A stretch of 64,000 nt of DNA from a virus (lineage: Duplodnaviria > Caudoviricetes), in the IMG/VR virus record IMGVR_UViG_3300028864_000017. One strand, 5' to 3'. Below the pieces are notes generated by a model. The model made no database searches, was not told the DNA's origin, and saw only the letters and a program-made list of their open reading frames with translations. The position numbers and the translations under genes were made by a program. Shown here piece by piece: positions 2 through 58,272 of this stretch. How positions within the stretch are numbered: position 1 is the stretch's first letter; each line of letters starts with the position of its first letter.

Positions 2-307
2 CCAATTCATGATTTATTAAAAAACTTTACGATAAAAACAGATTTAAATACTGCTAGAAAAAGATCAAATTATTTAAATAGAAAGAAAAATTTTATCGAA
101 TTTATTAGAACGAATTGTCCAAATCTAAGTTATGGTTATGATGAATATGAAAGATATGAAACTTGTAAAATAAAAAAAGGATATTGTAATTCTTGTAATA
201 TATCAGAAGATTGTATTTGTCATATTAGTTCTGATGCTGTTAATAAAAATTCAGATGTAATTAAATATATTAGGGATAAAAAATTAAAAAAAATTAAAAA
301 TATTTGA
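2..307 (+). CDS. Partial Cys-rich hypothetical protein with C-terminal RxxKLxxI tag
   Basis: Open frame 2 from the window edge to TGA at 305-307, ending IRDKKLKKIKNI; not in the ORF track. Confidence 0.7.
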   Translation, partial: PIHDLLKNFTIKTDLNTARKRSNYLNRKKNFIEFIRTNCPNLSYGYDEYERYETCKIKKGYCNSCNISEDCICHISSDAVNKNSDVIKYIRDKKLKKIKNI

Positions 308-597
308 TGCCAAAAAATCTTGAATTATATCAAAAAATCTTAGATGCTTCAAATATGATTCACAATAAATCATTGAAAGGAAGCGGAAATTATATCATAT
401 TGAATTCGAAATGTTCAGAAATATTAGAAAAATACGAAGAACAACGAAAGAAAAAGGAAGATAGAAAGAAAAAATTGAAACAGATAGAAAAATTATCAAC
501 TAATACAGATGATGAAATTAATAATATCCTATATTTTAGAAAGAATGAATCAGAAAAATATAGGCAAAAAATAGAATTTAAACATAAAAAACATTAA
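304..597 (+). CDS. Hypothetical protein
   Basis: ORF overlaps the upstream stop; internal RKKKLKQI. Confidence 0.6.
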   Translation: MMPKNLELYQKILDASNMIHNKSLKGSGNYIILNSKCSEILEKYEEQRKKKEDRKKKLKQIEKLSTNTDDEINNILYFRKNESEKYRQKIEFKHKKH

Positions 598-646
598 ATT
601 AATAAAAATATAATGAACTACATATTATTGTAGTTCATTTTTTTAT

Positions 647-654
647 TATCTTTG
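647..654 (+). promoter_or_regulatory. Bacteroidota sigma70 -7 element (TATCTTTG)
   Basis: TAnnTTTG just after a terminator-like hairpin, 30 nt before ORF 684. Confidence 0.65.
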
Positions 655-683
655 TACATTAATTATAAAAAAACAAATAGGGC

Positions 684-1010
684 ATGAAATCAGAATATGG
701 ATATAGCTTAGAAAATTCTTGGATAAACGAGAATAACATTGAAAATTATAAAGCATTTAACAAATTAATGGAAACATTTGAATTTGTAGGTGTTTTTTCA
801 GATAAATTGATAATAAAAGTATTTAATCTAGCTTTTAGAATGACTGAAATTAAAAATTATTTGATAGATAATAAAATTTCTAAAATAGAAGCAGACGTCA
901 AATATAAAGAAGTTACAAATGAATTCGTAGATTTATTGAATGTTTATTGTATTTTCTCAAGTATTTTTAAAAGCAATTGTACAATGTTATTTATAAGTAT
1001 AGGATTATGA
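684..1010 (+). CDS. Hypothetical protein
   Basis: ORF follows the promoter. Confidence 0.6.
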   Translation: MKSEYGYSLENSWINENNIENYKAFNKLMETFEFVGVFSDKLIIKVFNLAFRMTEIKNYLIDNKISKIEADVKYKEVTNEFVDLLNVYCIFSSIFKSNCTMLFISIGL

Positions 1011-1210
1011 AAATATTAATGGCTATAATTTTCTTTATCGCTTTTTGCGGAACAGTATTCTTTTTTGGTAAATTAATGGTTTGGATGACATCTAAAATAA
1101 ATCCAAGTTCATTTGAAAATAAAATGACAAATTCTCAAATATTGAGTTATAATATAATTATGACAGTATCAATTTTTTTGTGGACAATTCTCTATTATTT
1201 AAGCTTATAA
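1007..1210 (+). CDS. Small 2-TM membrane protein
   Basis: Start MKILMAIIFF overlaps the upstream stop (ATGA); two hydrophobic segments. Confidence 0.65.
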   Translation: MKILMAIIFFIAFCGTVFFFGKLMVWMTSKINPSSFENKMTNSQILSYNIIMTVSIFLWTILYYLSL

Positions 1211-1222
1211 AAAATAAAAATT

Positions 1223-1660
1223 ATGAAACCAGTAAGAGTTTTTTTTAAATCAGTGAGTAAATATTTTGAAACCTGTTCATTATGGGTTATTTTTGGTGTG
1301 ACATACATATCAGCATTAGTTATTTTTCTATTGATGTTTCGTCTTTTTATTGGTAATAACGATGTTATTATTCTTAATGTTTTTATAAAACTTTCATTCT
1401 TTTTATCTTTTATATTTTCTTGCTTATCAACATTAACAGTTAGTAGTTCAAGAAAAAGTGATGTTTTTTGGAAATATCATAATGAAGTTGAAACTTTGAT
1501 AAATGATTCTGATACAGTTGATTCTTTACACGATATATTTGATAACGAAATACAAAAATTATGGAAAATGTCAATTGGTGGAATACATAATTTAGAAGCA
1601 AATAGATTGGTTTCATTAATTAATATAAAAATAAAAACAATTGAGAAAATAAAGCCATGA
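1223..1660 (+). CDS. Membrane protein
   Basis: Two hydrophobic segments followed by a helical C-terminus. Confidence 0.65.
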   Translation: MKPVRVFFKSVSKYFETCSLWVIFGVTYISALVIFLLMFRLFIGNNDVIILNVFIKLSFFLSFIFSCLSTLTVSSSRKSDVFWKYHNEVETLINDSDTVDSLHDIFDNEIQKLWKMSIGGIHNLEANRLVSLINIKIKTIEKIKP

Positions 1661-1896
1661 AAAATACAACAGTAGAGAGTTATTTATTATCTATTGAGGC
1701 ATTAGGAGAAAATATTATAAAAAAAATAAAAATTTCTGCATATACAGATGATGTAGCATGTTATAATGTAACTTATTTTGATGTTGAATTAGCAAAAAAT
1801 AGAAAAAAATTAATCACTATTAAATTATCTGAATATCATTTATTTATAAATAAATTGATTCGTAAACAAAAACTTCAAAAACTATCTGAATATTAA
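1657..1896 (+). CDS. Hypothetical protein with RxxKL tag
   Basis: Ends IRKQKLQKLSEY. Confidence 0.65.
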   Translation: MKNTTVESYLLSIEALGENIIKKIKISAYTDDVACYNVTYFDVELAKNRKKLITIKLSEYHLFINKLIRKQKLQKLSEY

Positions 1897-11069: not shown

Positions 11070-11408
11070 ATGAAAGTAAATAAATATAAAGAATATTTAA
11101 AATTTAAAGATAAGTATGAAATTATTAGACAAGAAATTATGAATCTAATAGAAGAATATTATATTTTTAATGATAATTTCAGAATAGAACATCTTGGAGA
11201 TACAAAGCATAGCTATATGTCAATTACTAATTTAAATAAATCTGATGAAAAAGATTATGAAACTGGAGAATATTGGTATTGGGTTGAATACCACTATCCG
11301 TATGCAGATAAAAATTTTGATAAAATAAGTCAAAGTGAATTTGATGATATTATGAAATTTATAGACAATCCTGAAGTATATAAAAAAGCAAAAAAATTTA
11401 ACTTGTGA
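11070..11408 (+). CDS. Hypothetical protein with KFNL C-terminus
   Basis: MKVNKYKEY ... AKKFNL. Confidence 0.7.
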   Translation: MKVNKYKEYLKFKDKYEIIRQEIMNLIEEYYIFNDNFRIEHLGDTKHSYMSITNLNKSDEKDYETGEYWYWVEYHYPYADKNFDKISQSEFDDIMKFIDNPEVYKKAKKFNL

Positions 11409-11409
11409 T

Positions 11410-11694
11410 ATGAAAGTAAATAAATTTGAAGAAATAAACGAAAGTTCAAGAGTAAGAGGATATTATATTAATTCTGAAAATGGTGAATTAAGAACAGGAT
11501 ATACTCACAATTCTAATATTTTTTTAACTGATGAAGAATATAAAAGAATAAAAGGATTAGCAGATAGTATTAAAGCATCTTGTGAAAATTATAATGATAT
11601 GAAAGAAACTAAAATTTCAATGCTAAGAGCAGCAATACATAAAGTTAAAGATGATTCTGAATTTATGAAGACAACAAATAAATTTAATATTTAA
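11410..11694 (+). CDS. Hypothetical protein with KFNI C-terminus
   Basis: MKVNKFEEINES ... TNKFNI. Confidence 0.7.
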   Translation: MKVNKFEEINESSRVRGYYINSENGELRTGYTHNSNIFLTDEEYKRIKGLADSIKASCENYNDMKETKISMLRAAIHKVKDDSEFMKTTNKFNI

Positions 11695-13148: not shown

Positions 13149-14093
13149 ATGATAAAAAAATATAACATGTTTCTATTAAATGAAAATATATCTATGTCAA
13201 ATGAAGATATAATTGAAATACTAAAATCATTAGAGACAGAAGACAATAAAAACTCTATTTTAATTAAAAGATTAGTTAATTATACTGATAAAAGTGGTAA
13301 GAATGTACTAATGAGCGTAGTATCATCTAATAATATTGATTTAATAGATTATATTTTGAAATTTGATGTAAATTTAAACCAAGTAGTAACAAGTACTGGA
13401 GAAAACGTATTATTTTTTTGTAAAAACATTAATGTATTTAAAAAATTATATGAATTAGGAGCCAATGCGAATCAAATTACTAAAATTGATCGTACAGTAT
13501 TAAATTCACTATCAAGAAAGAAATTATTTAATGTTGAGTTATATCAAAAAATAATTACAGATGATGTTGATATAAATAAAATTGATATGAATAATGAATC
13601 TGTTCTTACTGGATCTATATTAAATAAAAAAATATTGGAATTATTATTAAATAACAATGTGAATTTGAATGGATTGGATCAATCAAATTTTTTATATAGG
13701 TTATCTTATGAACTAAATTATTATCCTAAAAAACAAAATATAATATTAGACATATTTAAAATCCTATTTAAAAATGGAATGATAATTCAAAACGAGACAA
13801 ATTTTATAAATATATTAAGATTAGATTCAAATAATATAGATATTATATATGATTTCATTGTTCCACTAAATAAATATATAACTGATAATATGATAATATT
13901 AATTTATGATAAATTATGTCATGAATCTGGAATGGATAGAATAAAGATGGCTAATAAATTATTGAGATTAGGCTCATATCCTAAATTCTACAATAAGTTA
14001 AAAAATAGTTTTAGAGAACAATTCTATATCGAATTCGCTGATTATATAAAGGAGAATCCATTTTATGAAGATGCCGAAAAATTTAACTTGTAA
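13149..14093 (+). CDS. Ankyrin-repeat protein
   Basis: DKSGKNVLM..V, TGENVLFF, GANANQ, NNESVL repeats; N-terminal MIKKYNMFLLNE; ends AEKFNL. Confidence 0.75.
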   Translation: MIKKYNMFLLNENISMSNEDIIEILKSLETEDNKNSILIKRLVNYTDKSGKNVLMSVVSSNNIDLIDYILKFDVNLNQVVTSTGENVLFFCKNINVFKKLYELGANANQITKIDRTVLNSLSRKKLFNVELYQKIITDDVDINKIDMNNESVLTGSILNKKILELLLNNNVNLNGLDQSNFLYRLSYELNYYPKKQNIILDIFKILFKNGMIIQNETNFINILRLDSNNIDIIYDFIVPLNKYITDNMIILIYDKLCHESGMDRIKMANKLLRLGSYPKFYNKLKNSFREQFYIEFADYIKENPFYEDAEKFNL

Positions 14094-14112
14094 TATTAAT
14101 ATATACACAAAT

Positions 14113-14475
14113 ATGAAACATTTAAAAAAATTTGAGACTAATTATAACTATAGTAGCACTGAGCCATATATTATAGAATTTGAAATAGTAAATAAAATAA
14201 TTGAGTTTATTAAAACAAATAAGTTGAAATATATTGACAATATTAAAATATATGATGGTGAATATTATATAACATTAGGAAAAATTGGAAATTATGACAA
14301 TACTTTATTGAAATATAAATATCCAGGTGATGAGCCAATAGAAATTATGATAGGCATACCTAGAAATGAAGGAGTTGATATTAATAATAGTATATTAGAA
14401 CAAATAAGAAAATTAACAGAAGAAGATATTAACGTTCTACATACTAAACAAGCATCATCAAAATTTAACATATAA
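14113..14475 (+). CDS. Hypothetical protein with MKHLKKFE start and KFNI end
   Basis: ATG at 14113; ends ASSKFNI. Confidence 0.7.
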   Translation: MKHLKKFETNYNYSSTEPYIIEFEIVNKIIEFIKTNKLKYIDNIKIYDGEYYITLGKIGNYDNTLLKYKYPGDEPIEIMIGIPRNEGVDINNSILEQIRKLTEEDINVLHTKQASSKFNI

Positions 14476-17301: not shown

Positions 17302-17619
17302 TTATTGGTAAAAAGATTTAATTTTTTTGCAATATCCTTTATATTTTGTTGGAATATCACTATCAAAATCACAAATATTCCATTCCTGTTGATTAATCAT
17401 TGAAGATAATGTTCTTTGGGAATTTTCTCCAAACATTATCTTATGAGAAGGATGAGAATCTACCCAAGCTCCATGTAGCATACTCCAATAAACTAATGAT
17501 TCCCATTTAGTTGAAATTTCCATTGGACAAAATAATTCTACAGTATCACCAGCATATATATTTTTACCAAAATCATCTTTGTATATTAAATATTTCTTCT
17601 TATAATTTTGTATTGTCAT
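17302..17619 (-). CDS. Hypothetical protein (YopX-like)
   Basis: KDDFGKNIYAGDTVEL. Confidence 0.5.
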   Translation of the reverse strand: MTIQNYKKKYLIYKDDFGKNIYAGDTVELFCPMEISTKWESLVYWSMLHGAWVDSHPSHKIMFGENSQRTLSSMINQQEWNICDFDSDIPTKYKGYCKKIKSFYQ

Positions 17620-17818
17620 TTGATTTAGAAATTATTTCATTTAATTTATCAAGTCTTATTTTTATTTTTTCTTTTCTTATTTGTTCAATCTTATATTGTT
17701 GACTTAATATAGTCCACTCCTTTAACATGCTAGTAACTGAATTTGTCTTTATTTGATCAGGTAATTCATCTCGACTGAATTTAACATCAAATTTTGTTTC
17801 GTCTATTGTTATTTTCAT
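17600..17818 (-). CDS. Hypothetical protein with RxxKL tag
   Basis: IRKEKIKIRLDKLNEI. Confidence 0.6.
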   Translation of the reverse strand: MKITIDETKFDVKFSRDELPDQIKTNSVTSMLKEWTILSQQYKIEQIRKEKIKIRLDKLNEIISKSNDNTKL

Positions 17819-18399
17819 TTTAATTTTTTTAATTTTTTATATCTAATATATGATTTTGTTTCTTGATGTTCATAATAACTCCAAATTTCTTTCAATTGAG
17901 ATTCATCTTTAATACGACTTTCATCATCAATCTCTATAACATTAACATAAAATGTTTTTGGTGTGAAAGGAATTTTTATTGTTTGTTTGCTTGTAATACT
18001 TTCATTCTTATTATTAAGTGCTCCGCCAGTATATGATGAATTATTTTCATCAACAAAAACAATTGCATCCAAATAATATGGACTACCATCAGTTGATACT
18101 TTAAAAACAGCACTACAACGATTATTCTGAAATAACATTTCACTATCATCCATAGTCACATCAATCCATTCATCATCAGTACACATGATAGGTGCAATTG
18201 GCTTAAAATTAGCTAATTTTGTAAAATAACTAATAGCATATGACGCTGAAAACCCAGAATGTCCTTGTTTAGAAAAAACTTCTAGTAACTCTAACACATT
18301 TTCTTGTACCCATTTATCTGGATCATTTTCACATTCTTCAACAGGTTTATAACCTATTTTTAGAAATTCTCTTTTAGCGTGTTCTATTAAATTACTCAT
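17815..18399 (-). CDS. Conserved phage hypothetical protein with RxxKL tag
   Basis: FSKQGHSGFSA, FQNNRCSAVFK; ends IRYKKLKKLK. Confidence 0.7.
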   Translation of the reverse strand: MSNLIEHAKREFLKIGYKPVEECENDPDKWVQENVLELLEVFSKQGHSGFSASYAISYFTKLANFKPIAPIMCTDDEWIDVTMDDSEMLFQNNRCSAVFKVSTDGSPYYLDAIVFVDENNSSYTGGALNNKNESITSKQTIKIPFTPKTFYVNVIEIDDESRIKDESQLKEIWSYYEHQETKSYIRYKKLKKLK

Positions 18400-18709
18400 T
18401 TTTATTATCTACTATTTTTCCAAGTTTATTTCTTCTTAATATATTATTAAATACTTTGTATAATTCTGTATCAGATTCTAATTTATTTATGATTTGATTT
18501 GCTTCTAATATCAACAATTTTTCATGCTCATTTTTTTTTTCATCTTCAGTCATATTCAGAAGTCTATCAATTTCACATCTATAAACATCTAATTGATTTT
18601 TTTTTAATTCTTTAAATAATTTATTGATTTGTTCGAACTGTTTATTACTTTCATAAAATGGATTAATTGAATTGATTATAGTTTTTATTATATCTTTAAA
18701 AAGTTTCAT
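18392..18709 (-). CDS. Hypothetical protein with RxxKL tag
   Basis: Probable start MKLFKD; LRRNKLGKI. Confidence 0.6.
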   Translation of the reverse strand: MKLFKDIIKTIINSINPFYESNKQFEQINKLFKELKKNQLDVYRCEIDRLLNMTEDEKKNEHEKLLILEANQIINKLESDTELYKVFNNILRRNKLGKIVDNKNE

Positions 18710-18969
18710 TTTAATTTTTTTAATTTTTTTAATTTTTCTTTTCTTGAATTGTAATTTATATATCTGTGACATCTATTACAAGCCCAACTATCTGGCTCAT
18801 ATTGTTTATCTGGTTGATATGGTTTGTGACCATTTATTTTACAAATCAATGGCATAAATGTATCATCAAAAGTAATTCTATCAAAATTTTTAATTAATTT
18901 CCAAGTTTTATTCCAATTCTTATATTTAATATAATGAAATAAATTTTGTGTTTCTCTACCACATCCCAT
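18706..18969 (-). CDS. Small Cys/His protein with RxxKL tag
   Basis: CKINGHK ... CNRCH; ends SRKEKLKKLKKLK. Confidence 0.65.
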   Translation of the reverse strand: MGCGRETQNLFHYIKYKNWNKTWKLIKNFDRITFDDTFMPLICKINGHKPYQPDKQYEPDSWACNRCHRYINYNSRKEKLKKLKKLK

Positions 18970-19210
18970 AACTATTCAACATTTTTATTTTTAATTTTCT
19001 ATATTCTTTTATTGACATAAAATCACATTCAAGATACCAACTTTGAATAGTGGTTCCAAATTTTACAGAATATAAAATATCAGATAAATTATCTGAATAT
19101 CGATATGAATATCCATATATTTTATATGTTTTATACTCCTTGAGATTCCATCCATAAATATTTTTAGAATTATTTATGAATATAACGTTATCACCAACAT
19201 GAAACTTCAT
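18956..19210 (-). CDS. KOW/SH3-like small protein with RxxKI tag
   Basis: MKFHVGDNVIFIN ... YRKLKIKML. Confidence 0.65.
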   Translation of the reverse strand: MKFHVGDNVIFINNSKNIYGWNLKEYKTYKIYGYSYRYSDNLSDILYSVKFGTTIQSWYLECDFMSIKEYRKLKIKMLNSYGMW

Positions 19211-19220: not shown

Positions 19221-19409
19221 TTAAAAATTAAATGATTTGTTTTGTGTTTTTGGTTTTTCTGATGTGAATAATGCATCGAATTGTCTCTTGTTAAATTCTG
19301 TGTCTCCATATTGTCCATCAACATGATATTTATTGTCTTTGGTGTGTGAATAATTGTAGGTTTTGTTATTTTCAAACTGCCCGTAATCTAGCTTACATAT
19401 AGCTCTCAT
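19221..19409 (-). CDS. Hypothetical protein
   Basis: ORF. Confidence 0.55.
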   Translation of the reverse strand: MRAICKLDYGQFENNKTYNYSHTKDNKYHVDGQYGDTEFNKRQFDALFTSEKPKTQNKSFNF

Positions 19410-20042: not shown

Positions 20043-20050
20043 TATCTTTG
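20043..20050 (+). promoter_or_regulatory. Bacteroidota sigma70 -7 element
   Basis: TATCTTTGCA in the divergent intergenic region. Confidence 0.55.
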
Positions 20051-20237: not shown

Positions 20238-20462
20238 ATGAAAAGAATCAAATGTAAAAAATCAGATGTAGTAACTGACAACAGAACCTACAACATTCTA
20301 AATAATGATAATACAGATCCTTATTGGGACGAAGGATTACACTTTTATCCAGAACAATCAAGAATAACAAGAAAGTTTAAAAAGAAACAATTGCTAATGT
20401 ATCAAATAAGAATGTATAAAACTTGGAAGCACAATAGAAGTAATCAATATAAAGTAAAATAA
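20238..20462 (+). CDS. Hypothetical protein
   Basis: ORF. Confidence 0.6.
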   Translation: MKRIKCKKSDVVTDNRTYNILNNDNTDPYWDEGLHFYPEQSRITRKFKKKQLLMYQIRMYKTWKHNRSNQYKVK

Positions 20463-20464
20463 TT

Positions 20465-21118
20465 ATGTTTTTTTTTAAAAGTAAAATAAATGAATTGACA
20501 TATTTACGTCAATATACACATCATAGTGATTATGATTCATCAGAAAAAATGAAATATGAATCAATTGATAGTATTATGAAATACTTCAGAAAAATGATTG
20601 ATATTGATGAAAAATGTGGATTATCAATAGAATCAAAATTTAAAGATGTTATTTATCCTGTTTTTGATTTAGATTGTAAATCTAAATATGAATTATTTAA
20701 AACTTTACATGAAGATACTCCATATGTAATATTCATAAGTAGTTGTAACGATGACGATGATGATGAAAAAAAATATCACTATTGGGGAATTATTGGAAAT
20801 TCTAACAAAAAATTCAAAGAATTAATATCAAATCAAAATTGGAAAATCTGCAATGATAATAATTATGTAAAATTTTCAACAGAAATAAGTAAAATTCTAA
20901 TTAGAGGAATATTTGAAAATAAAAATAGAAAGCCAAAATTATTTGAAAAAAATGGTATTCTATCTGAAGATTTTGAAATGTTCATATCTAAATTAGAAAG
21001 TCATTATAATACTAATGGCTTTGAATTGTCAGTATTAAGATATAAGAATACTGAACTATTGATACAATTCAATAGAAAATTAAAATTGAAAAAGATAAAT
21101 TATAGTGAAAAAGAATAA
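20465..21118 (+). CDS. Hypothetical protein with RxxKL tag
   Basis: YPVFDLD; ends NRKLKLKKI. Confidence 0.65.
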   Translation: MFFFKSKINELTYLRQYTHHSDYDSSEKMKYESIDSIMKYFRKMIDIDEKCGLSIESKFKDVIYPVFDLDCKSKYELFKTLHEDTPYVIFISSCNDDDDDEKKYHYWGIIGNSNKKFKELISNQNWKICNDNNYVKFSTEISKILIRGIFENKNRKPKLFEKNGILSEDFEMFISKLESHYNTNGFELSVLRYKNTELLIQFNRKLKLKKINYSEKE

Positions 21119-21275
21119 AAAAAATGAAAATATTTTTAATGTAGTTAACTTAGATTTTGCAAGCTTATATCCATCCTCATTTAAAATTGATGAACGATTG
21201 ATTGCTGAGCTAAATAGAAAAAAAACAAATGAAAAAAGACGGCAAAAGCTTGAAAAAATAAATAACTTAAAATGA
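21105..21275 (+). CDS. Mini-ORF carrying PolB motif A (LDFASLYPS) and RxxKL tag
   Basis: Frame reads FNVVNLDFASLYPSSFKIDE ... RRQKLEKINNLK-TGA, overlapping the next ATG; start is either GTG 21105 or ATG 21124 with a 1-nt frameshift. Confidence 0.55.
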   Translation: MKKNKKNENIFNVVNLDFASLYPSSFKIDERLIAELNRKKTNEKRRQKLEKINNLK

Positions 21276-39574: not shown

Positions 39575-39841
39575 ATGATAACAAATTTGAATATTGGAGA
39601 TAAAATTATTCTAAAAAAACCTTCAAATATATTTGAGGAATTTGGAATACCATCAGATTTGAGTGTTGATGAAACTTATACTATATCTGAGATACATAAA
39701 GGATTAATTGATAATGTCATTATACGTGTTGGAATAAAAGAAAAACCATATTCATTATATTATATTGGATTATTTGAAACATCATTGAAATTTGAAAGAA
39801 GACAAAAATTAAACAACTTGAAAAAATATGAAAAAAACTAA
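39575..39841 (+). CDS. KOW/SH3-like protein with RxxKL tag
   Basis: LNIGDKIIL, LSVDETYTI, ERRQKLNNL. Confidence 0.65.
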   Translation: MITNLNIGDKIILKKPSNIFEEFGIPSDLSVDETYTISEIHKGLIDNVIIRVGIKEKPYSLYYIGLFETSLKFERRQKLNNLKKYEKN

Positions 39842-41720: not shown

Positions 41721-41975
41721 ATGACAATATTTACACTAAGTCTTAATAATTTCTTTTTCGATATTGAAGATAATATTTTTTATCATAGATATAATAGTTT
41801 TAGAGTAAAGTTTGTGGAATTTCAGACACATAACGAATTTCATTTATATTACGGAGGTTACGATAATTATCTAGGAAGCTTTACTGATGAAGAAATATTT
41901 ATTAAAAAAATGAAAGATTATAATATTAAGATATTGAGATATAAAAAATTAAAAGAATTAGAACTCACAAAATAA
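41721..41975 (+). CDS. Hypothetical protein with RxxKL tag
   Basis: LRYKKLKEL. Confidence 0.6.
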   Translation: MTIFTLSLNNFFFDIEDNIFYHRYNSFRVKFVEFQTHNEFHLYYGGYDNYLGSFTDEEIFIKKMKDYNIKILRYKKLKELELTK

Positions 41976-43019: not shown

Positions 43020-43907
43020 ATGAATAAATATTTCACATATACAATAAAAGACAAAAAAGATAAAAATTATCTTTTTATTAAATATCTTATTGTAACTAAT
43101 ATAAAATTTTCAAGTTATCATGAATGCGAATATGGTGAGTATATAACTTTCAGTGTTAATAATAACATTCCAAGAAAATTAAAATTAAAAGTTCTAAATA
43201 ACATAAAAATTAGTTATGAAGAACAACAAATTTTAGAAATTATTAGTCAGTCTACACCAGGTGTGAGAATGGATGTTATGTGTGGTTCTGATTTTAATCA
43301 CACTTCTGAAACAGCAAAAAATTTCTCAAATACAAACAACGTAATTTGCAGTTTCAATTTTAATGGTATAATTTGTTTAATTGACAAAAGTACAAATCTC
43401 AATAATTTATATAAGTATTATAATGATGCTCATTTGATGGAATGGGCTAAAATTGGTCCTATATGTGATGATGAATATGATGATAAAACTAAAATTGAGT
43501 ATGAAAAAAAATTAAAAATATCTGAGGAAAAATCTATAAAAAGAAGAATTGAAGAACACAAAAAAGATATTGAAGTTAAAAGAAAGTATAAAGAAAAAAT
43601 AAAAGGAATTGATATTGAACTATTAAATCAAAAAGATTGGGATGATTGGAAGTTAAAAAATAAAGATTCATACGGAAATTGTGTATTTGAATATGCTGAA
43701 GGATGGGCTAAATTAATGCAATCAGAAGCAAAATCAAAAAGTAAAGAAATTGATATTGAATTACTAAAAGAAATTGCAAGTAAAACATCATTTGAAATGG
43801 ATTTTTTAGGAATATCAGGATCAATGTTTTATGCAGCTCAATCAATTCTTGTACAATGTTGGAAATATGGTAGTTTACTTAAAGAATGGAGTGAAATCAA
43901 TAAATGA
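43020..43907 (+). CDS. Hypothetical protein
   Basis: C-terminal DSYGNCVFEYAEGWAKLMQ ... GISGSMFYAAQSILVQCWKYG phage domain. Confidence 0.65.
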   Translation: MNKYFTYTIKDKKDKNYLFIKYLIVTNIKFSSYHECEYGEYITFSVNNNIPRKLKLKVLNNIKISYEEQQILEIISQSTPGVRMDVMCGSDFNHTSETAKNFSNTNNVICSFNFNGIICLIDKSTNLNNLYKYYNDAHLMEWAKIGPICDDEYDDKTKIEYEKKLKISEEKSIKRRIEEHKKDIEVKRKYKEKIKGIDIELLNQKDWDDWKLKNKDSYGNCVFEYAEGWAKLMQSEAKSKSKEIDIELLKEIASKTSFEMDFLGISGSMFYAAQSILVQCWKYGSLLKEWSEINK

Positions 43908-45824: not shown

Positions 45825-46271
45825 ATGACAAATAATCAAACTCATAACATATTTTACTTTCTTGGAATTATGATAAATGATAATAAAATTATAAATACAT
45901 CACCTGATTATTTAATAGAAAAAGCTAATGCATTTTTTAGTAAATTAGGAAAAGATGAATTTATATCTAATATTAAAAATATATATCGTTCTCAAAAACT
46001 AGATTACACTACTGAATTTTGGTTATCATATTGTCAAATATGGCATATTGATAAAAACAATTTTGAATTGTTAAATATTATTAATTTTATATTAAATTCA
46101 AATATTACTGATACTAAAAATGTGATTCAAAACTTTAAAAAATATATTGGAGATATTAATATCATTCCTGATTTAGATTTGAGTTTTAAATTGCATCCAA
46201 CATTATTAATACATATAAATAAAAGTATTGATTTTGATAGTAGATATTTAAAGTTATTATCACTAAAATAA
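45825..46271 (+). CDS. Hypothetical protein
   Basis: ORF. Confidence 0.6.
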   Translation: MTNNQTHNIFYFLGIMINDNKIINTSPDYLIEKANAFFSKLGKDEFISNIKNIYRSQKLDYTTEFWLSYCQIWHIDKNNFELLNIINFILNSNITDTKNVIQNFKKYIGDINIIPDLDLSFKLHPTLLIHINKSIDFDSRYLKLLSLK

Positions 46272-46291: not shown

Positions 46292-47329
46292 ATGACAAAT
46301 AATATAGCGTTAACGTATGATGATATTCAACTTATACCATTTTATAGTGAAGTAGAACATAGAAATAAAATTTCATTAACAACAAAACTATCTACAAATT
46401 ATGAGTTGATGATACCATTGGTAGCATCACCTATGGATACCGTTTGTGAGCATGAAATGGCGTTTAAAATGTTTCAATTAGGAGGAGTAGGATGTATTCA
46501 TAGATTCATGACTATTGAAGAACAAGTTGATGAAATCAAAAAATTAAAAAAATTAATTGATTATAGTTTATATAATCCTTTTATTAATGTACAGAATATT
46601 CCAATAATGGCATCAGTAGGCTCAAATGGAGATTTTTTAGAAAGGTCTAAATCATTAATAGAATCTGGAGTAAATGTAATTCTTATTGATGTTGCTCATG
46701 GACATCACATAAATGTCAAAAAAGCGATTAAAGAAATAAAAGGATTGAATTTAGGAGTGGATATAATTGCAGGTAATATTGCAACTGCAGAAGCCGCAAT
46801 TGATTTGCAAAATTGGGGAGCTGATGGACTAAGATGTGGTATTGGTGGCGGAAGTCTTTGTACAACTAGAATCAAGACAGGATTTGGTGTTCCAAATGTT
46901 ACAAGTTTAATAGAAATTTTAAATGTTGCAAAAGTACCAGTTATGGCTGATGGTGGAATTAGAACAAGTGGAGATATATCAAAGGCTCTTGCATTAGGTT
47001 CATCTACTATTATGTTAGGCTCACTATTAGCTGGAACAGAAGAATCACCAGGAAAGGTTATAGAGAGTCCTAATGGCTTATATAAACGATATAGAGGCTC
47101 TGCATCATTAGAAACAAAAACTGTTCATGGTCAAGCGGAAAGAAATGTGGAAGGAGAGTCAACAACAATTCCATTTAAAGGAGGAGTCAAATTTGTAATT
47201 GAAGGATTAATAAACGGTGTTCGTTCTGCATTATCTTATGGAGGTGCAAAAAATTTATCTGAATATCACCCTAAATGGTATCAAGTAACAAATGCTGGAA
47301 TTGCTGAAGCAAGACCACATTTATTATAA
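46292..47329 (+). CDS. guaB: IMP dehydrogenase / GMP reductase family protein without CBS domains
   Basis: LTYDDIQLIP, ASPMDTV, IDVAHGH, GIGGGSLCTTR, ADGGIRTSGDISKALA, YRGSAS, VEG. Confidence 0.9.
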   Translation: MTNNIALTYDDIQLIPFYSEVEHRNKISLTTKLSTNYELMIPLVASPMDTVCEHEMAFKMFQLGGVGCIHRFMTIEEQVDEIKKLKKLIDYSLYNPFINVQNIPIMASVGSNGDFLERSKSLIESGVNVILIDVAHGHHINVKKAIKEIKGLNLGVDIIAGNIATAEAAIDLQNWGADGLRCGIGGGSLCTTRIKTGFGVPNVTSLIEILNVAKVPVMADGGIRTSGDISKALALGSSTIMLGSLLAGTEESPGKVIESPNGLYKRYRGSASLETKTVHGQAERNVEGESTTIPFKGGVKFVIEGLINGVRSALSYGGAKNLSEYHPKWYQVTNAGIAEARPHLL

Positions 47330-48150: not shown

Positions 48151-48789
48151 ATGAAAATAAGAAATGGATTTGTAAGTAACTCATCATCTAGTAGCTTTAT
48201 AATTTCTAACAACAATTTTGAAAGTTTACGTGATCTTGCTACGCATATGATTAAATCGAAATATGATGATTATATGGGTAATACTGGAAGAGATAAACAA
48301 TATGATAAATATAGAATAAAAGAGCATGATTTATACATTAATGGGCTAAAAAATATAGACAAAAATCAGGCAATAACATTTCAAAGTTGTAACTATGATA
48401 CTTATATAAAAAAAGTAGCAGATTGCTATTTAGTTTCTACTAGTAATAACGAAGATTGGGATTTATGGCAATTTAGCACTAAATTAACTGATGATGCAAA
48501 ATCAGAATTACGAATATTATTACAAAAATATAAGGAAGATGATGATGAATGGTGCAGCATAACCAGTCTACTTGATGGTGATAGTGAATTTTATTCTTTT
48601 GATAATGATTATTATTCTTTAGATTATCAATTATTAGGAAAAGAAAGTTATGAATCTTGTCCAATATGTGATAAAAAAGGAGATTTTAATTATATGTGGG
48701 AAACAAAAAAGCACGGTCTTATATGTCCAGTATGTAATACAGTATATAAAAGAAAAGATAAATTAGATGAAATAACTAAAAATTTATAA
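48151..48789 (+). CDS. NSSSSS-motif protein 6 with Zn ribbon and RxxKL tag
   Basis: MKIRNGFVSNSSSSSF; CPICD ... CPVCN; RKDKLDEI. Confidence 0.8.
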   Translation: MKIRNGFVSNSSSSSFIISNNNFESLRDLATHMIKSKYDDYMGNTGRDKQYDKYRIKEHDLYINGLKNIDKNQAITFQSCNYDTYIKKVADCYLVSTSNNEDWDLWQFSTKLTDDAKSELRILLQKYKEDDDEWCSITSLLDGDSEFYSFDNDYYSLDYQLLGKESYESCPICDKKGDFNYMWETKKHGLICPVCNTVYKRKDKLDEITKNL

Positions 48790-55211: not shown

Positions 55212-55274
55212 AAAATTTTTAATATTGAATATACAAAAAAATTGTGTATCTTTGTTTTTATTTAAAAAATCAAC

Positions 55275-55760
55275 ATGAAATACGGAATTTACACATTAGT
55301 AATTGAGAATTATATCACTAAAAATTTACCTCTACTAAGTACATTTTCATTAAAAATGGAATTCGGATGGGGTAATGGTTATATATTAATACCTAATAAT
55401 CATCCATCATATGGAGTTTCATATGATGATATGAATACAATAAGTGTACATGGAGGATTAACATATGGTCAATTTTTTGATTCTAAATCATTTTTAGAAT
55501 GGATTGATAATTTAGAAATTGATGGTGATGTAACAATAGATAATTATAAAAAATTAGATAATTATTGGATGATAGGATTTGATACTAATCATTATGGAGA
55601 TAGTATTGAAAAATGTTCTAAAGAATATGTAATACATCAATCTGAATATTTAATGGAACAATGTTTAAATAATAAAATAGAAGGAGTTATGAAATACAAA
55701 TTAGCATACTCAAGAAAAGAAAAATTAAAAAACATTAATCAAGTCATTAAAAATAAATGA
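55275..55760 (+). CDS. Conserved phage hypothetical protein with RxxKL tag
   Basis: WGNGYILIPNNHP, VHGGLTY, IGFDTNHYGD; RKEKLKNI; promoter at 55247-55254. Confidence 0.7.
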   Translation: MKYGIYTLVIENYITKNLPLLSTFSLKMEFGWGNGYILIPNNHPSYGVSYDDMNTISVHGGLTYGQFFDSKSFLEWIDNLEIDGDVTIDNYKKLDNYWMIGFDTNHYGDSIEKCSKEYVIHQSEYLMEQCLNNKIEGVMKYKLAYSRKEKLKNINQVIKNK

Positions 55761-55921: not shown

Positions 55922-56218
55922 ATGAATAAAATTGAAGAAATTTTCAAATCTTGGAGAATATCATTCAACCCAAATGATGAGCAATCAGATCTTGCAAGTA
56001 AAAGAATTGAAATATGTGATGGGTGTGAGCATAAAGAGATGTTAAATATAGGAGAGATTGATATATTTGCAAGATGTAATTTATGTGGCTGTGCGTTAAA
56101 AGCAAAAATATTCACACCTAAAACATATCAAGATATCGGAGGAACATGTCCTATTCAAAAATGGACTGAAGTTGAAAAAGAGCATTTAGATTCAATTGAA
56201 AATGGAAAGAAAATTTAA
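55922..56218 (+). CDS. Cys-rich (Zn-binding) phage protein
   Basis: RIEICDGCEH ... CNLCGCALKAK ... CPIQKW. Confidence 0.7.
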   Translation: MNKIEEIFKSWRISFNPNDEQSDLASKRIEICDGCEHKEMLNIGEIDIFARCNLCGCALKAKIFTPKTYQDIGGTCPIQKWTEVEKEHLDSIENGKKI

Positions 56219-56477
56219 AATAGGTGACATTGTTATTTGTTCTGAAATTTGCAATGACATTAAAGAATATCCTTGGTATCATAAAATTCCTATGTCAATT
56301 ATTGGATTTTCAGAATATGGTAATTGTTACTATACTGATTATTGGGACTCTGATAACATAGGAATGATGACAAATAAGACAATAAATGGAGTAACTTATG
56401 AAAGTATTTCAGAAGAATGTTTAGAGTTTTCTATTAAGCACACAAGAAAAGAGAAATTAAAAAAGCTTCATATTTAA
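56196..56477 (+). CDS. KOW/SH3-like protein with RxxKL tag
   Basis: KFKIGDIVIC ... TRKEKLKKL. Confidence 0.65.
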   Translation: MKMERKFKIGDIVICSEICNDIKEYPWYHKIPMSIIGFSEYGNCYYTDYWDSDNIGMMTNKTINGVTYESISEECLEFSIKHTRKEKLKKLHI

Positions 56478-56492
56478 ATATGAAGCTTTTTT
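56458..56492. terminator. Bidirectional terminator
   Basis: aaaaagcttcatat-ttaa-atatgaagctttttt. Confidence 0.8.
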
Positions 56493-56498
56493 AATTTT

Positions 56499-57539
56499 TT
56501 AATTTTTACCATGAATAGGACAGTTATCATCAATTAAACATTTTTTTGAAGGATAAATTTCAATATTATTAATTTTTGGACATGTACATCTTGGAGTTTG
56601 CCAAAATTTATGAAATAATATATCTTCATCTTCTCCGTAAAGAGTTTGCATATTAAATTCAATATTAGTTAGTTTTTTATAATATTTTTTTATACTACCT
56701 TCACAGTTATAAATATCATCATAAATCTTCAATTTATTTAACAAACAATCTTTCAATTTTGATAAATTTTCATTAATTTGAATTCTATTCTCATCAACTC
56801 TACTTCTAAACTCTTTATATTTAACCAAATATTTATCCTCTTTTTCATATTTGTCAATCAAATCATTTAGTGTAGAACTTTTCAATTCTTTATATTCTTC
56901 AGGATTAATATCTTCGTCTTCAATACATTTTTCTAGCTCTTCAAATCTTTCTTTTTTATCAAGAGGACCACCATGAAATGTTATTTCACTAAATATTGCG
57001 TTATACAAATCAAATAATGTAAATGTTTTTTCTCCTAACTCAAATTTTGAATCTTCTTCATTTTTACCCTCTATCAATTTATTATAATCATATACAGTGA
57101 AATTTTTATTGAGTGAAATGTTTAATTTTTTTAAATTATTAAGAGATACAAAGTCTATTGAATAAAAATCAGAATTGTTATTTGATACGCCGTGAATTGT
57201 AGATGTTACATTTAATTCATTATCATACTTATTACAGCTCCAATTAACTTCTAGATAATCCATATCAAGTTTGTCAGTTGGATTATTTTCAATTTCTTGT
57301 AAAAATGGATCAATATAATATCCATCTAATGATGAATAAAAAATATCATTAAAATCATTAACATTATGTGATATAATATCAAACAATCTTTTAAATATTA
57401 AATTCTCACCTAATTCAACAGTATCTGACAAAAAAAGTAATATATCGTTTGGGTCAATAACATCAGCATTATCTATTGAATCTAGGTATAAAATTGATTC
57501 TTCGCTATAATAGATTTTATTGTTTGTTATGGTTATCAT
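56499..57539 (-). CDS. Hypothetical protein
   Basis: 346 aa; C-terminal PRCTCPKINN ... CPIHG. Confidence 0.7.
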   Translation of the reverse strand: MITITNNKIYYSEESILYLDSIDNADVIDPNDILLFLSDTVELGENLIFKRLFDIISHNVNDFNDIFYSSLDGYYIDPFLQEIENNPTDKLDMDYLEVNWSCNKYDNELNVTSTIHGVSNNNSDFYSIDFVSLNNLKKLNISLNKNFTVYDYNKLIEGKNEEDSKFELGEKTFTLFDLYNAIFSEITFHGGPLDKKERFEELEKCIEDEDINPEEYKELKSSTLNDLIDKYEKEDKYLVKYKEFRSRVDENRIQINENLSKLKDCLLNKLKIYDDIYNCEGSIKKYYKKLTNIEFNMQTLYGEDEDILFHKFWQTPRCTCPKINNIEIYPSKKCLIDDNCPIHGKN

Positions 57540-57548
57540 ATAATTAAA

Positions 57549-57875
57549 TTATTTATTAGTATCGACTAATTCAGCATCAACAATTTCTACCGATTCAGGA
57601 GAAATTATACTTTCTTCAACTACTTCTGGTATAACACTTAGATTATCAATATCAATTAATGATATATCATCTATAGTATTCAATTCATCAATATTTATAT
57701 CTGAATCAATAGCATCTTCTGTTGATGTATGTGCTTGTCCAGCCATAATCTCCTGTTGAAGTTTAATATAATTTTCCATCATTTTCTTCTTCAATATTTC
57801 TTGCTGTACTTTCTTATTTTCGTTATATTTTCTAACTTTAGAATCGTGTCCTTTTCTATTTTTTGATTTTGGCAT
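57549..57875 (-). CDS. Hypothetical protein
   Basis: Basic N-terminus MPKSKNRKGH, acidic C-terminus. Confidence 0.65.
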   Translation of the reverse strand: MPKSKNRKGHDSKVRKYNENKKVQQEILKKKMMENYIKLQQEIMAGQAHTSTEDAIDSDINIDELNTIDDISLIDIDNLSVIPEVVEESIISPESVEIVDAELVDTNK

Positions 57876-57909
57876 ATTTTTATGTTTTTATTTTATATTA
57901 ATTGATTAA

Positions 57910-58272
57910 TCAATTAAAATTCTCTATTTTATTTATTTTATCTTTTCTGAGATATAAGCTAAAATCAGTTATTTTAATTAAACTAAGTTTATCTAAATAC
58001 GATGCAAGTTCTGTATCACAGAAATAATAAGAATTATTATATTTAAATATCAAGTAGTGATCATAATTTACATAAGACATAAAATCATCAAGGTTATCTA
58101 ATTCGATAACCTTGAGATTTTTTATCTCATCAATAATATAAAGATTTTTCAATGAAGATATCTTAACATCACTTATATCAATAGCATTTTCGCTATTATT
58201 ATATATTATGTCTCTTATTTCATCAAAAATCTCCTTATTATTGCTGTGTTTCTGATACTGTTCCTGGTTCAT
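57910..58272 (-). CDS. Hypothetical protein with RxxKI tag
   Basis: LRKDKINKI. Confidence 0.65.
   Translation of the reverse strand: MNQEQYQKHSNNKEIFDEIRDIIYNNSENAIDISDVKISSLKNLYIIDEIKNLKVIELDNLDDFMSYVNYDHYLIFKYNNSYYFCDTELASYLDKLSLIKITDFSLYLRKDKINKIENFN

Follow-up and report, generated by a model that had tools for sequence, protein, structure and literature searches.

A shared C-terminal helical motif on otherwise unrelated proteins of a huge Bacteroidota phage, a possible address label

Several systems are described in which a short peptide directs unrelated proteins to a common partner. The encapsulation peptides of bacterial microcompartments and the cargo-loading peptides of encapsulins are short terminal helices or peptides, joined by a poorly conserved linker to unrelated proteins and acting as an address for one receptor, whereas homologues outside the system lack them. 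The C-terminal degrons of AAA+ proteases, such as the ssrA LAA type and the MuA RRKKAI type, together with adaptor-binding tails, mark proteins for turnover. The MIM1 helices at the C-terminus of ESCRT-III proteins, (D/E)xxLxxRLxxL(K/R), are amphipathic helices read by the helical-bundle MIT domains of Vps4-type AAA+ ATPases. In phage T4, the capsid targeting sequence of the internal proteins is an N-terminal peptide cleaved by the prohead protease and found on late virion proteins. In bacteria, hub-docking linear motifs (the beta-clamp-binding motif QL[SD]LF, the SSB C-terminal tip) allow many unrelated proteins to bind one hub. Here, the motif R-x-x-K-[LI]-x-x-[LI], located just before the end of about one in six proteins of an uncultivated huge phage of Bacteroidota, is compared with these systems. 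No description of this motif as a tag was found in the literature, while analogous tags of other sequence were noted in other huge phages.

The analysed window is a stretch of 64,000 nucleotides, corresponding to positions 41000-104999 (minus strand) of a 143-kb record (G000:C1, hereafter the own record). A preliminary description, made from the sequence alone, had reported the motif at the C-termini of unrelated small proteins with varying codons, and this observation is confirmed. All 27 open reading frames (ORFs) named there (21 on the plus strand, 6 on the minus strand) carry the motif, followed by a tail of 1-16 residues, and of 1-8 residues in 25 of them. The tagged ORFs and the promoter-type boxes located in the window are as follows:

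2-307 (+): tagged ORF, open at its 5' end; tag RDKKLKKI at 272-295, 3 residues before the stop
1657-1896 (+): tagged ORF, 79 aa; tag RKQKLQKL at 1861-1884; the orthologue in the 330-kb relative G002 keeps the tag
17600-17818 (-): tagged ORF, 72 aa; tag RLDKLNEI at 17633-17656, tail of 10 residues
17815-18399 (-): tagged Tad3 homologue (Thoeris inhibitor family), 194 aa; tag RYKKLKKL at 17821-17844
18392-18772 (-): tagged ORF, 126 aa; tag RRNKLGKI at 18413-18436
18706-18969 (-): tagged ORF, 87 aa, overlapping its neighbours; tag RKEKLKKL at 18721-18744
18956-19210 (-): tagged ORF, 84 aa; tag RKLKIKML at 18977-19000
20043-20050 (+): TATCTTTG box (Bacteroidota sigma-A -7 type) in the divergent intergenic region ahead of the 20238-23484 array, which holds 9 tagged genes
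20465-21118 (+): tagged ORF, 217 aa; tag RKLKLKKI at 21074-21097
21105-21275 (+): tagged ORF, 56 aa; tag RRQKLEKI at 21237-21260
21792-22127 (+): tagged ORF, 111 aa; tag RKQKLIEI at 22095-22118
22120-22410 (+): tagged ORF, 96 aa; tag RINKLNKL at 22372-22395
22395-22676 (+): tagged ORF, 93 aa; tag RISKLNKI at 22629-22652
22654-22923 (+): tagged ORF, 89 aa; tag RKMKLEKL at 22879-22902
22911-23243 (+): tagged ORF, 110 aa; tag RTSKLKKL at 23208-23231
23233-23484 (+): tagged ORF, 83 aa, last gene of its array; tag RKNKLNKL at 23434-23457
25607-25840 (+): tagged ORF, 77 aa, directly upstream of DnaK; tag RKLKLEKL at 25805-25828
27798-27805 (+): TATCTTTG box 36 nt ahead of the operon that starts with tagged genes 27834 and 28066
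27834-28076 (+): tagged ORF, 80 aa; tag RKLKLENI at 28038-28061
28066-28365 (+): tagged ORF, 99 aa; tag RKVKLKQI at 28291-28314, tail of 16 residues
32501-32794 (+): tagged ORF, 97 aa; tag RKNKLNKL at 32756-32779
33078-33389 (+): tagged ORF, 103 aa (phrog_21321); tag RKKKLKQI at 33348-33371
33370-33525 (+): tagged ORF, 51 aa; tag RIEKINRL at 33490-33513; no co-directional gene downstream
39575-39841 (+): tagged ORF, 88 aa; tag RRQKLNNL at 39797-39820
41721-41975 (+): tagged ORF, 84 aa; tag RYKKLKEL at 41937-41960
48151-48789 (+): tagged ORF, 212 aa; tag RKDKLDEI at 48751-48774; no co-directional gene downstream; the orthologue in L075/G002 keeps the tag with a TTA-to-TTG change and a tail 12 residues longer
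55247-55254 (+): TATCTTTG box 28 nt ahead of tagged gene 55275-55760
55275-55760 (+): tagged ORF, 161 aa (phrog_2164-like core); tag RKEKLKNI at 55713-55736
56196-56477 (+): tagged ORF, 93 aa; tag RKEKLKKL at 56445-56468; the next gene is convergent
57910-58272 (-): tagged ORF, 120 aa; tag RKDKINKI at 57925-57948

The enrichment of the motif was tested against shuffled sequences, as the preliminary description had proposed. With a simple set of non-overlapping, naively called ORFs, the own record contains 37 motifs starting 8-26 residues from the C-terminus in 228 ORFs, and only 7 elsewhere. Shuffling of each protein gives 0.46 +/- 0.68 at the C-terminus (maximum 4 in 1000 shuffles), and shuffling of the last 30 residues alone gives 0.79 +/- 0.88. 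The reversed motif occurs 3 times at C-termini, and the forward motif 3 times at N-termini. An unbiased search for gapped triplets enriched in the last 25 residues returned R..KL as the top hit, with 31 observed against 2.3 expected. Of the 28 hits obtained in the window, two are probably due to chance: 28604-28831 (RENKISSI) and 45825-46271 (RYLKLLSL), neither of which had been listed previously. The earlier remark that recognisable enzymes lack the tag holds for RtcB and DnaK of the window, however, it is not a rule, because a riboflavin-kinase-domain protein of the Mahaphage LR756502.1 carries it.

The tag is not restricted to the own record. It is found in 110 of 982 genes of the 642-kb LR756502.1 (2.3 expected), in 94 of 582 genes of the 330-kb G002 and in 31 of 464 genes of a 385-kb relative (G008), whereas the related 735-kb LR756501.1 shows only the background level. 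Internal occurrences stay at background level in the own record and LR756502.1. In seven IMG/VR relatives 10-18 tagged genes per 20 kb were counted next to DnaK, and the tag occurs in at least 3 clades of the DnaK tree. The tag has a lineage-specific flavour, RK.KL.K[LI]N in the lineage of the window and R[DN].K[LI]..[IL](L/GI)-stop in LR756502.1, which fits co-evolution with a reader.

Selection acts on the protein. Codon usage at the fixed positions R1, K4, L5 and L8 matches genome usage in the own record (all p > 0.1), and the codons vary as first described. In 30 orthologue pairs between the own record and G002, the fixed positions show 19 synonymous and 10 non-synonymous changes, all of the latter L<->I, while the variable positions show 12 synonymous and 42 non-synonymous changes. 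In addition, 26-30% of tagged genes have no coupled downstream gene.

The tag is portable, as 147 tagged proteins fall into 144 BLAST clusters. A MAFFT alignment of 30 tagged proteins has M1 and the R and K of the tag as its only invariant columns, and 27 of the 30 have no Pfam hit. In two families close relatives carry the tag while distant ones end at the core domain. The first is the phrog_2164-like family of 55275-55760, in which about 40 close homologues are tagged and two remote members carry the tag on different linkers. The second is the Tad3 family, represented in the window by 17815-18399 (Pfam Tad3, 127 bits), in which 79 of 120 homologues are tagged; the solved Tad3 structure 9b7d also ends at the core. 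AlphaFold2 predicts a loop followed by a terminal helix in both unrelated folds: a loop at residues 131-137 and a helix at 138-160 in the phrog_2164-like protein, and a tag helix at residues 182-193 after a loop in the Tad3 homologue. The predicted tag helix has a pLDDT above 90 in both models, which could mean that it packs on its own domain rather than being free.

Tagged genes are located preferentially behind Bacteroidota sigma-A-type promoters, with the consensus TAnnTTTG (PMC9723704); the TATCTTTG box occurs at 16 sites in the window against 6.8 expected. In LR756502.1, 40 of 249 genes in TAnnTTTG-headed operons are tagged, against 9 of 350 in operons headed by the phage motif AATATATA (OR 7.3, p 3e-9). 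G002 gives OR 3.5 (p 0.004) and G008 gives OR 3.3 (p 0.01), whereas in the small own record the bias is not significant. The AATATATA class includes tail sheath and head decoration, and the TAnnTTTG class includes DnaK, NAMPT and PRPP synthetase. These promoter classes are based on motifs rather than on expression data, and a large share of tagged genes lies in operons with no recognised motif, namely 60 of 110 in LR756502.1 and 60 of 94 in G002. A second tag, K-[FY]-N-[LIV]-COOH, shows the opposite pattern and is enriched in the AATATATA class (63 of 151 against 10 of 174).

The best explanation, to which a probability of roughly 0.55 is given, is that the motif is a portable, protein-level C-terminal tag of about 12 residues, a short helix with the pattern [ILY]-R-[K]-x-K-[LI]-x-[K]-[LI]-N in this lineage, joined by a short loop to otherwise unrelated domains. 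In this view it labels one class of the proteome in a clade of huge, Mahaphage-related phages of Bacteroidota: the small accessory and anti-defence proteins encoded in tight arrays that would mostly be transcribed from host sigma-A-type promoters and are therefore presumably early. The attached domain works without it, as the characterised Tad3 has no tag. The four fixed residues R1, K4, [LI]5 and [LI]8 lie on one face of a helix, so the tag most likely acts as a docking peptide presenting this face to one common reader protein, of the phage or of the host, which would handle the whole early class together by tethering, sequestration or timed removal. The enrichment, the selection at the protein level, the modularity, the clade-wide distribution, the promoter-class bias and the helix (as a prediction) are demonstrated by the analysis, while the existence of a single reader and its action are inferred. 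As no reader was identified, docking rests on exclusion and analogy, and LR756501.1 does without the tag.

The preliminary interpretation, that of a phage-wide sorting or docking signal formed by a basic amphipathic helix, is thereby supported in part. The evidence agrees with a protein-level module appended to unrelated proteins, predicted to be helical, and phage-wide as well as clade-wide. The term basic amphipathic helix describes only the lineage of the window, since in LR756502.1 position 2 is D or N and the mean net charge is about +1. The proposed membrane binding is disfavoured, as the 12-mer is too polar for it (mean hydrophobicity -0.3 to -0.5, hydrophobic moment about 0.2). Of the proposed hub, compartment or protease none was identified, and the candidates examined (phage ClpP, M28-like peptidases and MIT domains) failed the co-occurrence test. 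The recruitment of new ORFs by the tag is likewise no more than a suggestion of the preliminary description.

Among the alternatives, a class-wide degron survives best, although it remains unlikely. Here the tag would be recognised by an AAA+ protease or its adaptor, of the host or the phage, so that early proteins are cleared together at the switch to late development. The tag lies near the C-terminus, in LR756502.1 within 1-4 residues of it in 85 of 110 cases and ending in non-polar L/GI, it marks the presumed early class and is rare in late operons, and LR756502.1 encodes three ClpP homologues whereas the tag-free LR756501.1 has none. However, G008, which is 95% complete and carries 31 tags, has no ClpP, and the ClpP-bearing G009 and G014 show no tags next to DnaK. 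In the lineage of the window the tails are polar and 1-16 residues long, which does not fit degrons that need a fixed free C-terminus, and the motif matches neither the ssrA-type LAA nor the MuA-type RRKKAI signals reported by Flynn et al. (2003). A host protease as reader is not excluded.

An intramolecular or self-association element, that is, a generic terminal helix that caps or solubilises small domains or zips tagged proteins to each other without a separate reader, is more doubtful. It is favoured by the pLDDT values mentioned above and by the hydrophobic positions -1, 5 and 8, which could pack on a core. On the other hand, an invariant R and K at fixed spacing on more than 140 unrelated bodies is not expected of a mere cap, untagged homologues, including the crystallised Tad3, fold and work without it, the sister phage LR756501.1, of similar composition, does without it, and about 12 residues is short for a stable coiled coil.

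A virion-loading peptide, analogous to encapsulin cargo-loading peptides or the T4 capsid targeting sequence, by which tagged proteins would be packed into the huge capsid and injected with the DNA, is very unlikely. It would agree with a short terminal tag on unrelated cargo that includes an anti-defence protein, the Tad3 homologue, and phages do inject such proteins (T4 IPI*, P1 Dar). Nevertheless, tagged genes are 3-7 times depleted from operons sharing the promoter motif of tail-sheath and head-decoration genes, it is the other tag that is enriched there, and there is no similarity to encapsulin or T4 targeting sequences.

The weakest reading is a nucleic-acid-level element with the peptide as a by-product, for example an A-rich translation-initiation region for the next gene in SD-less Bacteroidota or a recombination site for shuffling gene cassettes: the tag DNA is A-rich and lies 10-50 nt before the next start, 70-74% of tagged genes have a tightly coupled downstream gene against 47-59% of untagged ones, and LR756502.1 shows a mild skew towards A-ending codons at tag positions, but Leu is encoded by TTA, TTG, CTT, CTA and CTG and Arg by AGA, AGG and CGT at genome frequencies in the own record, synonymous changes accumulate at the fixed codons as fast as in the flanks while the amino acids are kept, 75 tagged genes in four genomes have no coupled downstream gene, the commonest DNA version occurs only twice in the record, and the motif always sits in the coding frame.

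Compared to the encapsulation and cargo-loading peptides, the tag shares the short terminal helix, the variable linker and its absence from distant homologues, however, its sequence pattern is different and far more polar, no shell genes are associated, tagged genes avoid the late or structural promoter class, and the tag covers 10-16% of a viral proteome rather than a few cargo enzymes. With the AAA+ degrons it shares the C-terminal position, a basic-plus-aliphatic make-up in this lineage and a possible role in class-wide turnover, but the tail after the motif is variable and polar, a helical i, i+3/4, i+7 pattern replaces an extended terminal tripeptide, and there is no co-occurrence with phage ClpP. 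The MIM1 helices resemble it in a C-terminal helix with a basic-Leu-x-x-Leu core, although Arg occupies the position where MIM1 has Leu, no MIT domain is encoded in any of the five phage records searched, and a bacterial-virus system is compared with archaeal and eukaryotic ones. Like the T4 capsid targeting sequence, the tag is a phage-encoded short peptide on several unrelated phage proteins, yet it is C-terminal and sits on genes of the host-promoter class. Finally, with the hub-docking motifs of bacteria it has in common one short motif shared by many unrelated proteins, whereas the sequence is unrelated and the bearers are orphan accessory proteins, not replication or repair enzymes.

The window has a G+C content of 22-29% and corresponds to the minus strand of bases 41000-104999 of the 143-kb IMG/VR record (G000), which CheckV rates as 20% complete. 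Its DnaK (25852-27738) is most similar, at 54-58% identity, to the DnaK of uncultured phage genomes of 642, 635, 735 and 636 kb; these appear to be the four largest genomes of Al-Shayeb et al. 2020, which belong to the Mahaphage clade and are predicted to infect Bacteroidetes (PMC7162821). The record encodes replication proteins (a helicase, a split DNA polymerase, primase and SbcC), RtcB, a SPASM protein, a cation-efflux protein, a Tad4-domain protein and eight tRNAs, whereas long arrays of small orphan ORFs make up much of the rest. The DNA polymerase appears to be split into two genes about 86 kb apart, both outside the window:

G000:C1:105214-106695, 493-aa ORF matching the N-terminal and middle part of phrog_262
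G000:C1:18453-19814, 453-aa ORF matching the C-terminal part of phrog_262

The preliminary description reported a shared R-x-x-K-[LI]-x-x-[LI] motif near the C-terminus of 27 listed ORFs, and this observation is correct: all 27 carry the motif, followed by 1-16 further residues. In a simple, naively called set of non-overlapping ORFs from the whole record, 37 of 228 ORFs possess the motif starting 8-26 residues from the end, and only 7 motifs lie anywhere else. The enrichment was compared with composition, as had been proposed beforehand. Shuffling of each protein gave 0.46 C-terminal hits (maximum 4 in 1000 shuffles), and shuffling of the last 30 residues alone, which keeps the K/L/N-rich local composition, gave 0.79. 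The reversed motif and the N-terminal position are at background level. A blind search for gapped residue triplets enriched in the last 25 residues returned R..KL as the first hit (31 observed against 2.3 expected). The consensus in this lineage is [IL]-x-[KS]-[EIY]-[ILY]-R-K-x-K-L-x-K-[IL]-N, ending 3-6 residues later. Chance and composition are thereby rejected, also because LR756501.1, with similar composition, has 3 hits in 1023 genes. Tag-like motifs with longer extensions, or at an internal position, were also found in the window:

304-597 (+), RKKKLKQI followed by 36 residues
49055-49579 (+), RKLKLQVI followed by 43 residues, conserved in the orthologue of G002 (a 330-kb relative of the window's lineage)
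43020-43907 (+), 295-aa protein with a C-terminal Tad4 domain (Thoeris inhibitor family, 72 bits) and an internal copy, RKLKLKVL, near residue 52, as if a tagged small gene had fused to the gene downstream

The evidence indicates that the motif is maintained in the protein rather than in the nucleic acid. The Leu positions use TTA, TTG, CTT, CTA and CTG, and Arg is encoded by AGA, AGG and CGT; at all four fixed positions the codon mix cannot be distinguished from genome-wide usage in the own record (p 0.12-0.77). A comparison of 33 tagged genes with their orthologues in G002 (protein identity 46-92%) showed that 30 orthologues keep the strict motif, two more keep near-matches (K4Q, L5F), and the remaining one is a probable chance hit. 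In those 30 pairs the fixed codons show 19 synonymous and 10 non-synonymous changes, every one of the latter L<->I, the four variable codons show 12 synonymous and 42 non-synonymous changes, and the eight codons upstream show 38 and 69, respectively. Bases therefore drift at the usual rate while the four residues are held. Moreover, the tag does not depend on a following gene, since 26-30% of tagged genes in four genomes (75 genes) have no co-directional gene within 30 nt, in the window including 33370-33525, 48151-48789 and 56196-56477. The commonest DNA spelling occurs only twice in the record.

The tag is a module and not the trace of one diverged paralogue family. After removal of the tag, 147 tagged proteins of the record and of the 642-kb phage LR756502.1 fall into 144 BLAST clusters, with only a few weak links at E < 0.01. 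A forced alignment of the 30 longest tagged proteins of G002 has a mean identity of 11%, and its only invariant columns are the initiator Met and the R and K of the tag; 27 of the 30 have no Pfam match. In LR756502.1 a riboflavin-kinase domain carries the tag after an 85-residue extension. Two families of the window allow presence and absence of the tag to be compared:

55275-55760 (+), 161-aa protein with a phrog_2164-like core
17815-18399 (-), 194-aa Tad3 homologue (Pfam Tad3, 127 bits)

In the first family, about 40 homologues at 48-69% identity all keep R-[KR]-x-K-L-x-x-[IL], five distant homologues end directly after the core helix, and two intermediate ones carry the tag on different linkers. 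In the second, 79 of the 120 best homologues carry the tag after a short '...YYEHQET.SY' linker, whereas the more distant ones stop at '...EYY'. The crystallised Tad3 (9b7d) aligns over residues 1-191 of its 194 and has no tag. Tad3 inhibits type I Thoeris by binding ThsB as a homodimer (PMC13728456), and the tag is therefore not part of that activity.

AlphaFold2 with family alignments predicts the same arrangement in both unrelated folds, namely a core domain, a loop and a terminal helix containing the tag. The loop and helix span residues 131-137 and 138-160 in the 161-aa protein, and 176-181 and 182-193 in the Tad3 homologue. The pLDDT is above 90 in both, a confidence that does not discriminate between a helix face that is free and one packed on the core. 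R1, K4/[LI]5 and [LI]8 have i, i+3/4, i+7 spacing, that is, they lie on one helical face. The 12-mer is too polar for a membrane-binding helix (mean Eisenberg hydrophobicity -0.27 to -0.46, moment 0.19-0.26), and tagged proteins are not enriched in transmembrane-like segments. A Foldseek search of the 161-aa model against the PDB and an ESM Atlas search with the tag region returned no usable result.

The tag is unevenly distributed among related phages. LR756502.1 has 110 C-terminal motifs in 982 ORFs against 2.3 expected, and 23 internal ones against 17 expected; they are concentrated in its first and last 40 kb. Its version reads R-[DN]-x-K-[LI]-x-x-[IL]-(L or G-I)-stop and sits 1-4 residues from the end in 85 of 110 cases. 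In this genome 39 proteins end in G-I, of which 23 end in L-G-I, mostly as the end of the R-tag. G002 has 94 tags in 582 ORFs, and G008 (385 kb, 95% complete) has 31 in 464. Of 80 IMG/VR loci around DnaK homologues, those of the window's own clade have 10-18 tagged genes per 12-22 kb (up to 18 of 27 ORFs), a distant AT-rich lineage (locus L104) has 10 of 33, many loci of the LR756502.1 clade have 2-7, and several clades have none. LR756501.1 (735 kb) is closer to the window than LR756502.1 in most shared proteins, yet its 3 hits in 1023 ORFs are background, so that it serves as a natural negative control. Instead, LR756501.1 (loci L038-L074, e.g. 499642-503452 and 552409-555773) carries about 100 copies of a different motif, DPYGEExW: 41-44 at C-termini, often preceded by [KR][RK][IV][FY][ST], and 59 internal copies in 47 proteins, many just after an MIKKF.IFE-type N-terminal leader and others between domains. 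This motif showed no clear promoter-class bias.

The tagged proteins are small, with a median of 93 aa against 152 aa in the record; no protein above 350 aa is tagged there, and only 1 of 122 is in LR756502.1. Their genes are also clustered (14 adjacent pairs against 5.9 expected). Two upstream motifs, both promoter-like, dominate the intergenic regions of these phages, and both are 10-17-fold enriched in upstream regions of three related phages. The first, TA..TTTG, here mostly TATCTTTG, has 16 sites in the window against 6.8 expected; it is the -7 box of Bacteroidota sigma-A (PMC9723704) and agrees with the predicted host phylum. The second, (T)TAATATATA, is phage-specific. In LR756502.1 it heads the tail sheath, a head-decoration protein and other very large proteins, whereas TA..TTTG heads DnaK, NAMPT, PRPP synthetase, a GluRS-like enzyme, peptidases, a nucleotidyltransferase and an endonuclease. 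In the window, TATCTTTG boxes precede 55275, the operon starting at 27834 and the large 20238-23484 array. Promoter-like sites noted in the window are:

647, 8215, 20043, 25017, 27798, 34355, 35229, 37514 and 55247 (+)
7570 (-)
AATATATAYA at 3555, 13113 and 15238 (+)
AATATATAYA at 41440 (-)

When each gene was assigned to the nearest upstream motif on its strand, tagged genes made up 40 of 249 in TA..TTTG operons and 9 of 350 in AATATATA operons of LR756502.1 (OR 7.3, p 3e-9), 25 of 174 against 7 of 151 in G002 (OR 3.5, p 0.004), and 11 of 73 against 10 of 198 in G008 (OR 3.3, p 0.01). The own record alone shows the same direction, but without significance. These classes are inferred from motifs and not from expression data, and more than half of the tagged genes in the two largest genomes lie in operons in which neither motif was recognised. 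A second tag, K-[FY]-N-[LIV]-COOH (also written K-[FY]-N-[LIVF]-stop), lies exactly at the C-terminus of 27 proteins of the record and of 101 of 582 in G002 (across loci L187-L203). It never shares a protein with the R-tag, forms separate gene runs and shows the opposite bias, with 63 of 151 in AATATATA operons against 10 of 174 in TA..TTTG operons (p 2e-15), about a 12-fold enrichment behind the phage motif that also heads structural genes. In the window it is found in:

11070-11408 (+), ORF with the second tag
11410-11694 (+), ORF with the second tag
13149-14093 (+), ankyrin-repeat protein with the second tag
14065-14475 (+), ORF with the second tag
36083-36868 (+), ORF with the second tag
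19221-19409 (-), ORF with the second tag

The search for a protein that reads the R-tag yielded no convincing candidate. Three ClpP homologues in LR756502.1 (58622-59143, 112104-112634 and 364599-365000) and none in LR756501.1 looked promising; however, the tag-positive G008 has none, and ClpP, scattered among the related IMG/VR records, occurs in records with no tags near DnaK. Paralogues of M28-like peptidases behind host-type promoters are also present, in five copies, in the tag-free LR756501.1 and are absent from G002. DnaK is present in tagged and untagged lineages alike. A phyletic screen for families present in LR756502.1 and G008 but not in LR756501.1 gave 163 families, too many to be useful, of which only MgtC, an ankyrin protein, an IMPDH-like protein and two weak matches extend to G002; one of these, an unannotated 246-aa protein of G002, was not recovered in LR756502.1 or G008 by a search of the genomes. 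In the window the IMPDH-like gene (46292-47329) is a single 345-aa ORF, whereas in a relative (L075:1134-1724, JGI 3300029983, syntenic with the window at about 46-47 kb) it is called in pieces, one with an intein-splicing domain hit. Ankyrin-repeat proteins occur in all four tag-positive records (in G002 at least 10 ORFs, e.g. C1:255344-292657; in LR756502.1 at 282386-284248) and not in LR756501.1. In the window's lineage they form a multi-copy family, and the one inspected, 13149-14093, itself carries the second tag, so that they are a weak lead rather than a reader.

Taken together, a conserved one-sided helix, its attachment by a variable linker to more than 140 unrelated domains that, as in the case of Tad3, function without it, the bias towards one regulatory class and the lineage-specific flavour fit a docking or address peptide read by one common partner, with a probability of about 0.55. 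The preliminary interpretation of a phage-wide sorting or docking signal, a basic amphipathic helix acting as a module, is thus partly supported: the modular character is borne out and a terminal helix is predicted, but the suggested membrane binding is not supported and no hub or protease was identified. The enrichment, the selection on the protein, the modularity, the distribution, the promoter-class bias and the helix prediction result from the analysis itself, whereas the existence of a common reader, its binding to the tag and its effect on the tagged proteins are inferred.

A broader and more tentative view is that huge phages of this clade run a proteome-addressing code, in which distinct terminal peptides would label regulatory classes of proteins and be read by dedicated receptors. 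The R-x-x-K-L-x-x-L helix would mark the host-transcribed early accessory and anti-defence class and K-[FY]-N-[LIV]-COOH the late-promoter class, with other motifs such as DPYGEExW in sister lineages. A bacterial virus would then sort, tether or retire a third of its proteins by class, and no such system has been described for any phage. If one reader exists, the tag gives a handle on several hundred orphan proteins of the largest known phages and would predict which of them belong to the early host-takeover and anti-defence set, one of them being a Tad3-type Thoeris inhibitor. It would also offer a transplantable tag for delivering proteins to that reader and would make the temporal organisation of uncultivated huge phages testable from sequence alone. 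Different lineages use different tags, which suggests a general and evolvable principle rather than a curiosity of one genome.

Among the alternatives, a class-wide degron is the most attractive specific version but remains doubtful, as its only phage-encoded correlate, ClpP, fails by co-occurrence (G008 has tags but no ClpP) and the polar, variable tails in this lineage do not look like known C-terminal degrons. A purely intramolecular cap or self-zipper is less likely, since it does not explain the invariant R and K on unrelated folds or the absence of the tag from functional homologues. Capsid loading is improbable in view of the promoter bias. A DNA- or RNA-level origin is disfavoured by the codon data and is the weakest of all.

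Short address peptides are known from encapsulins, microcompartments, degrons and the T4 capsid. None is known to label 10-16% of the proteins of a phage, or a third when the second tag is counted, and none is known to follow the regulatory class of the gene. Literature searches on the motif, on shared or proteome-wide terminal tags in phages, on jumbo-phage targeting sequences and on DPYGEE found no description in the searchable literature. Functionally, the tag resembles encapsulin and microcompartment targeting peptides, AAA+ degrons, hub-docking motifs and, by pattern, the MIM1 helices read by MIT domains. The ssrA- and MuA-type degrons of ClpXP sit at the extreme C-terminus with a fixed terminal sequence (LAA-COOH or RRKKAI-COOH), whereas the present motif differs from both and is followed in this lineage by polar tails of 1-16 residues. 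Encapsulin cargo-loading peptides are of the G-S-L or L-x-x-G-S-L type, on cargo encoded next to, or co-expressed with, an HK97-fold shell; the motif described here is unrelated, and tagged genes are depleted from operons with the promoter motif of the structural genes. The BMC encapsulation peptide is an amphipathic helix of about 18 residues on a linker attached to unrelated cargo; here a linker and a terminal helix are predicted, the helix being only about 12 residues long, with a mean hydrophobicity of -0.3 to -0.5 and a moment of about 0.2. The MIM1 helix reads (D/E)xxLxxRLxxL(K/R) at the C-terminus, while the logos of 37 and 110 tags have R, not L, three residues before the K/R-L pair; the MIT domain (PF04212) is absent from G000, G002, G008, LR756502.1 and LR756501.1, although a host reader is not excluded. 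Membrane-targeting helices of the MinD/FtsA type require a high hydrophobic moment with a non-polar face sufficient for lipid binding, which the polar 12-mer does not possess, the LR756502.1 version carrying D or N and E. Finally, the T4 capsid targeting sequence is an N-terminal leader on virion proteins removed by the prohead protease, whereas the tag described here is C-terminal, with only 3 N-terminal occurrences in 228 ORFs.
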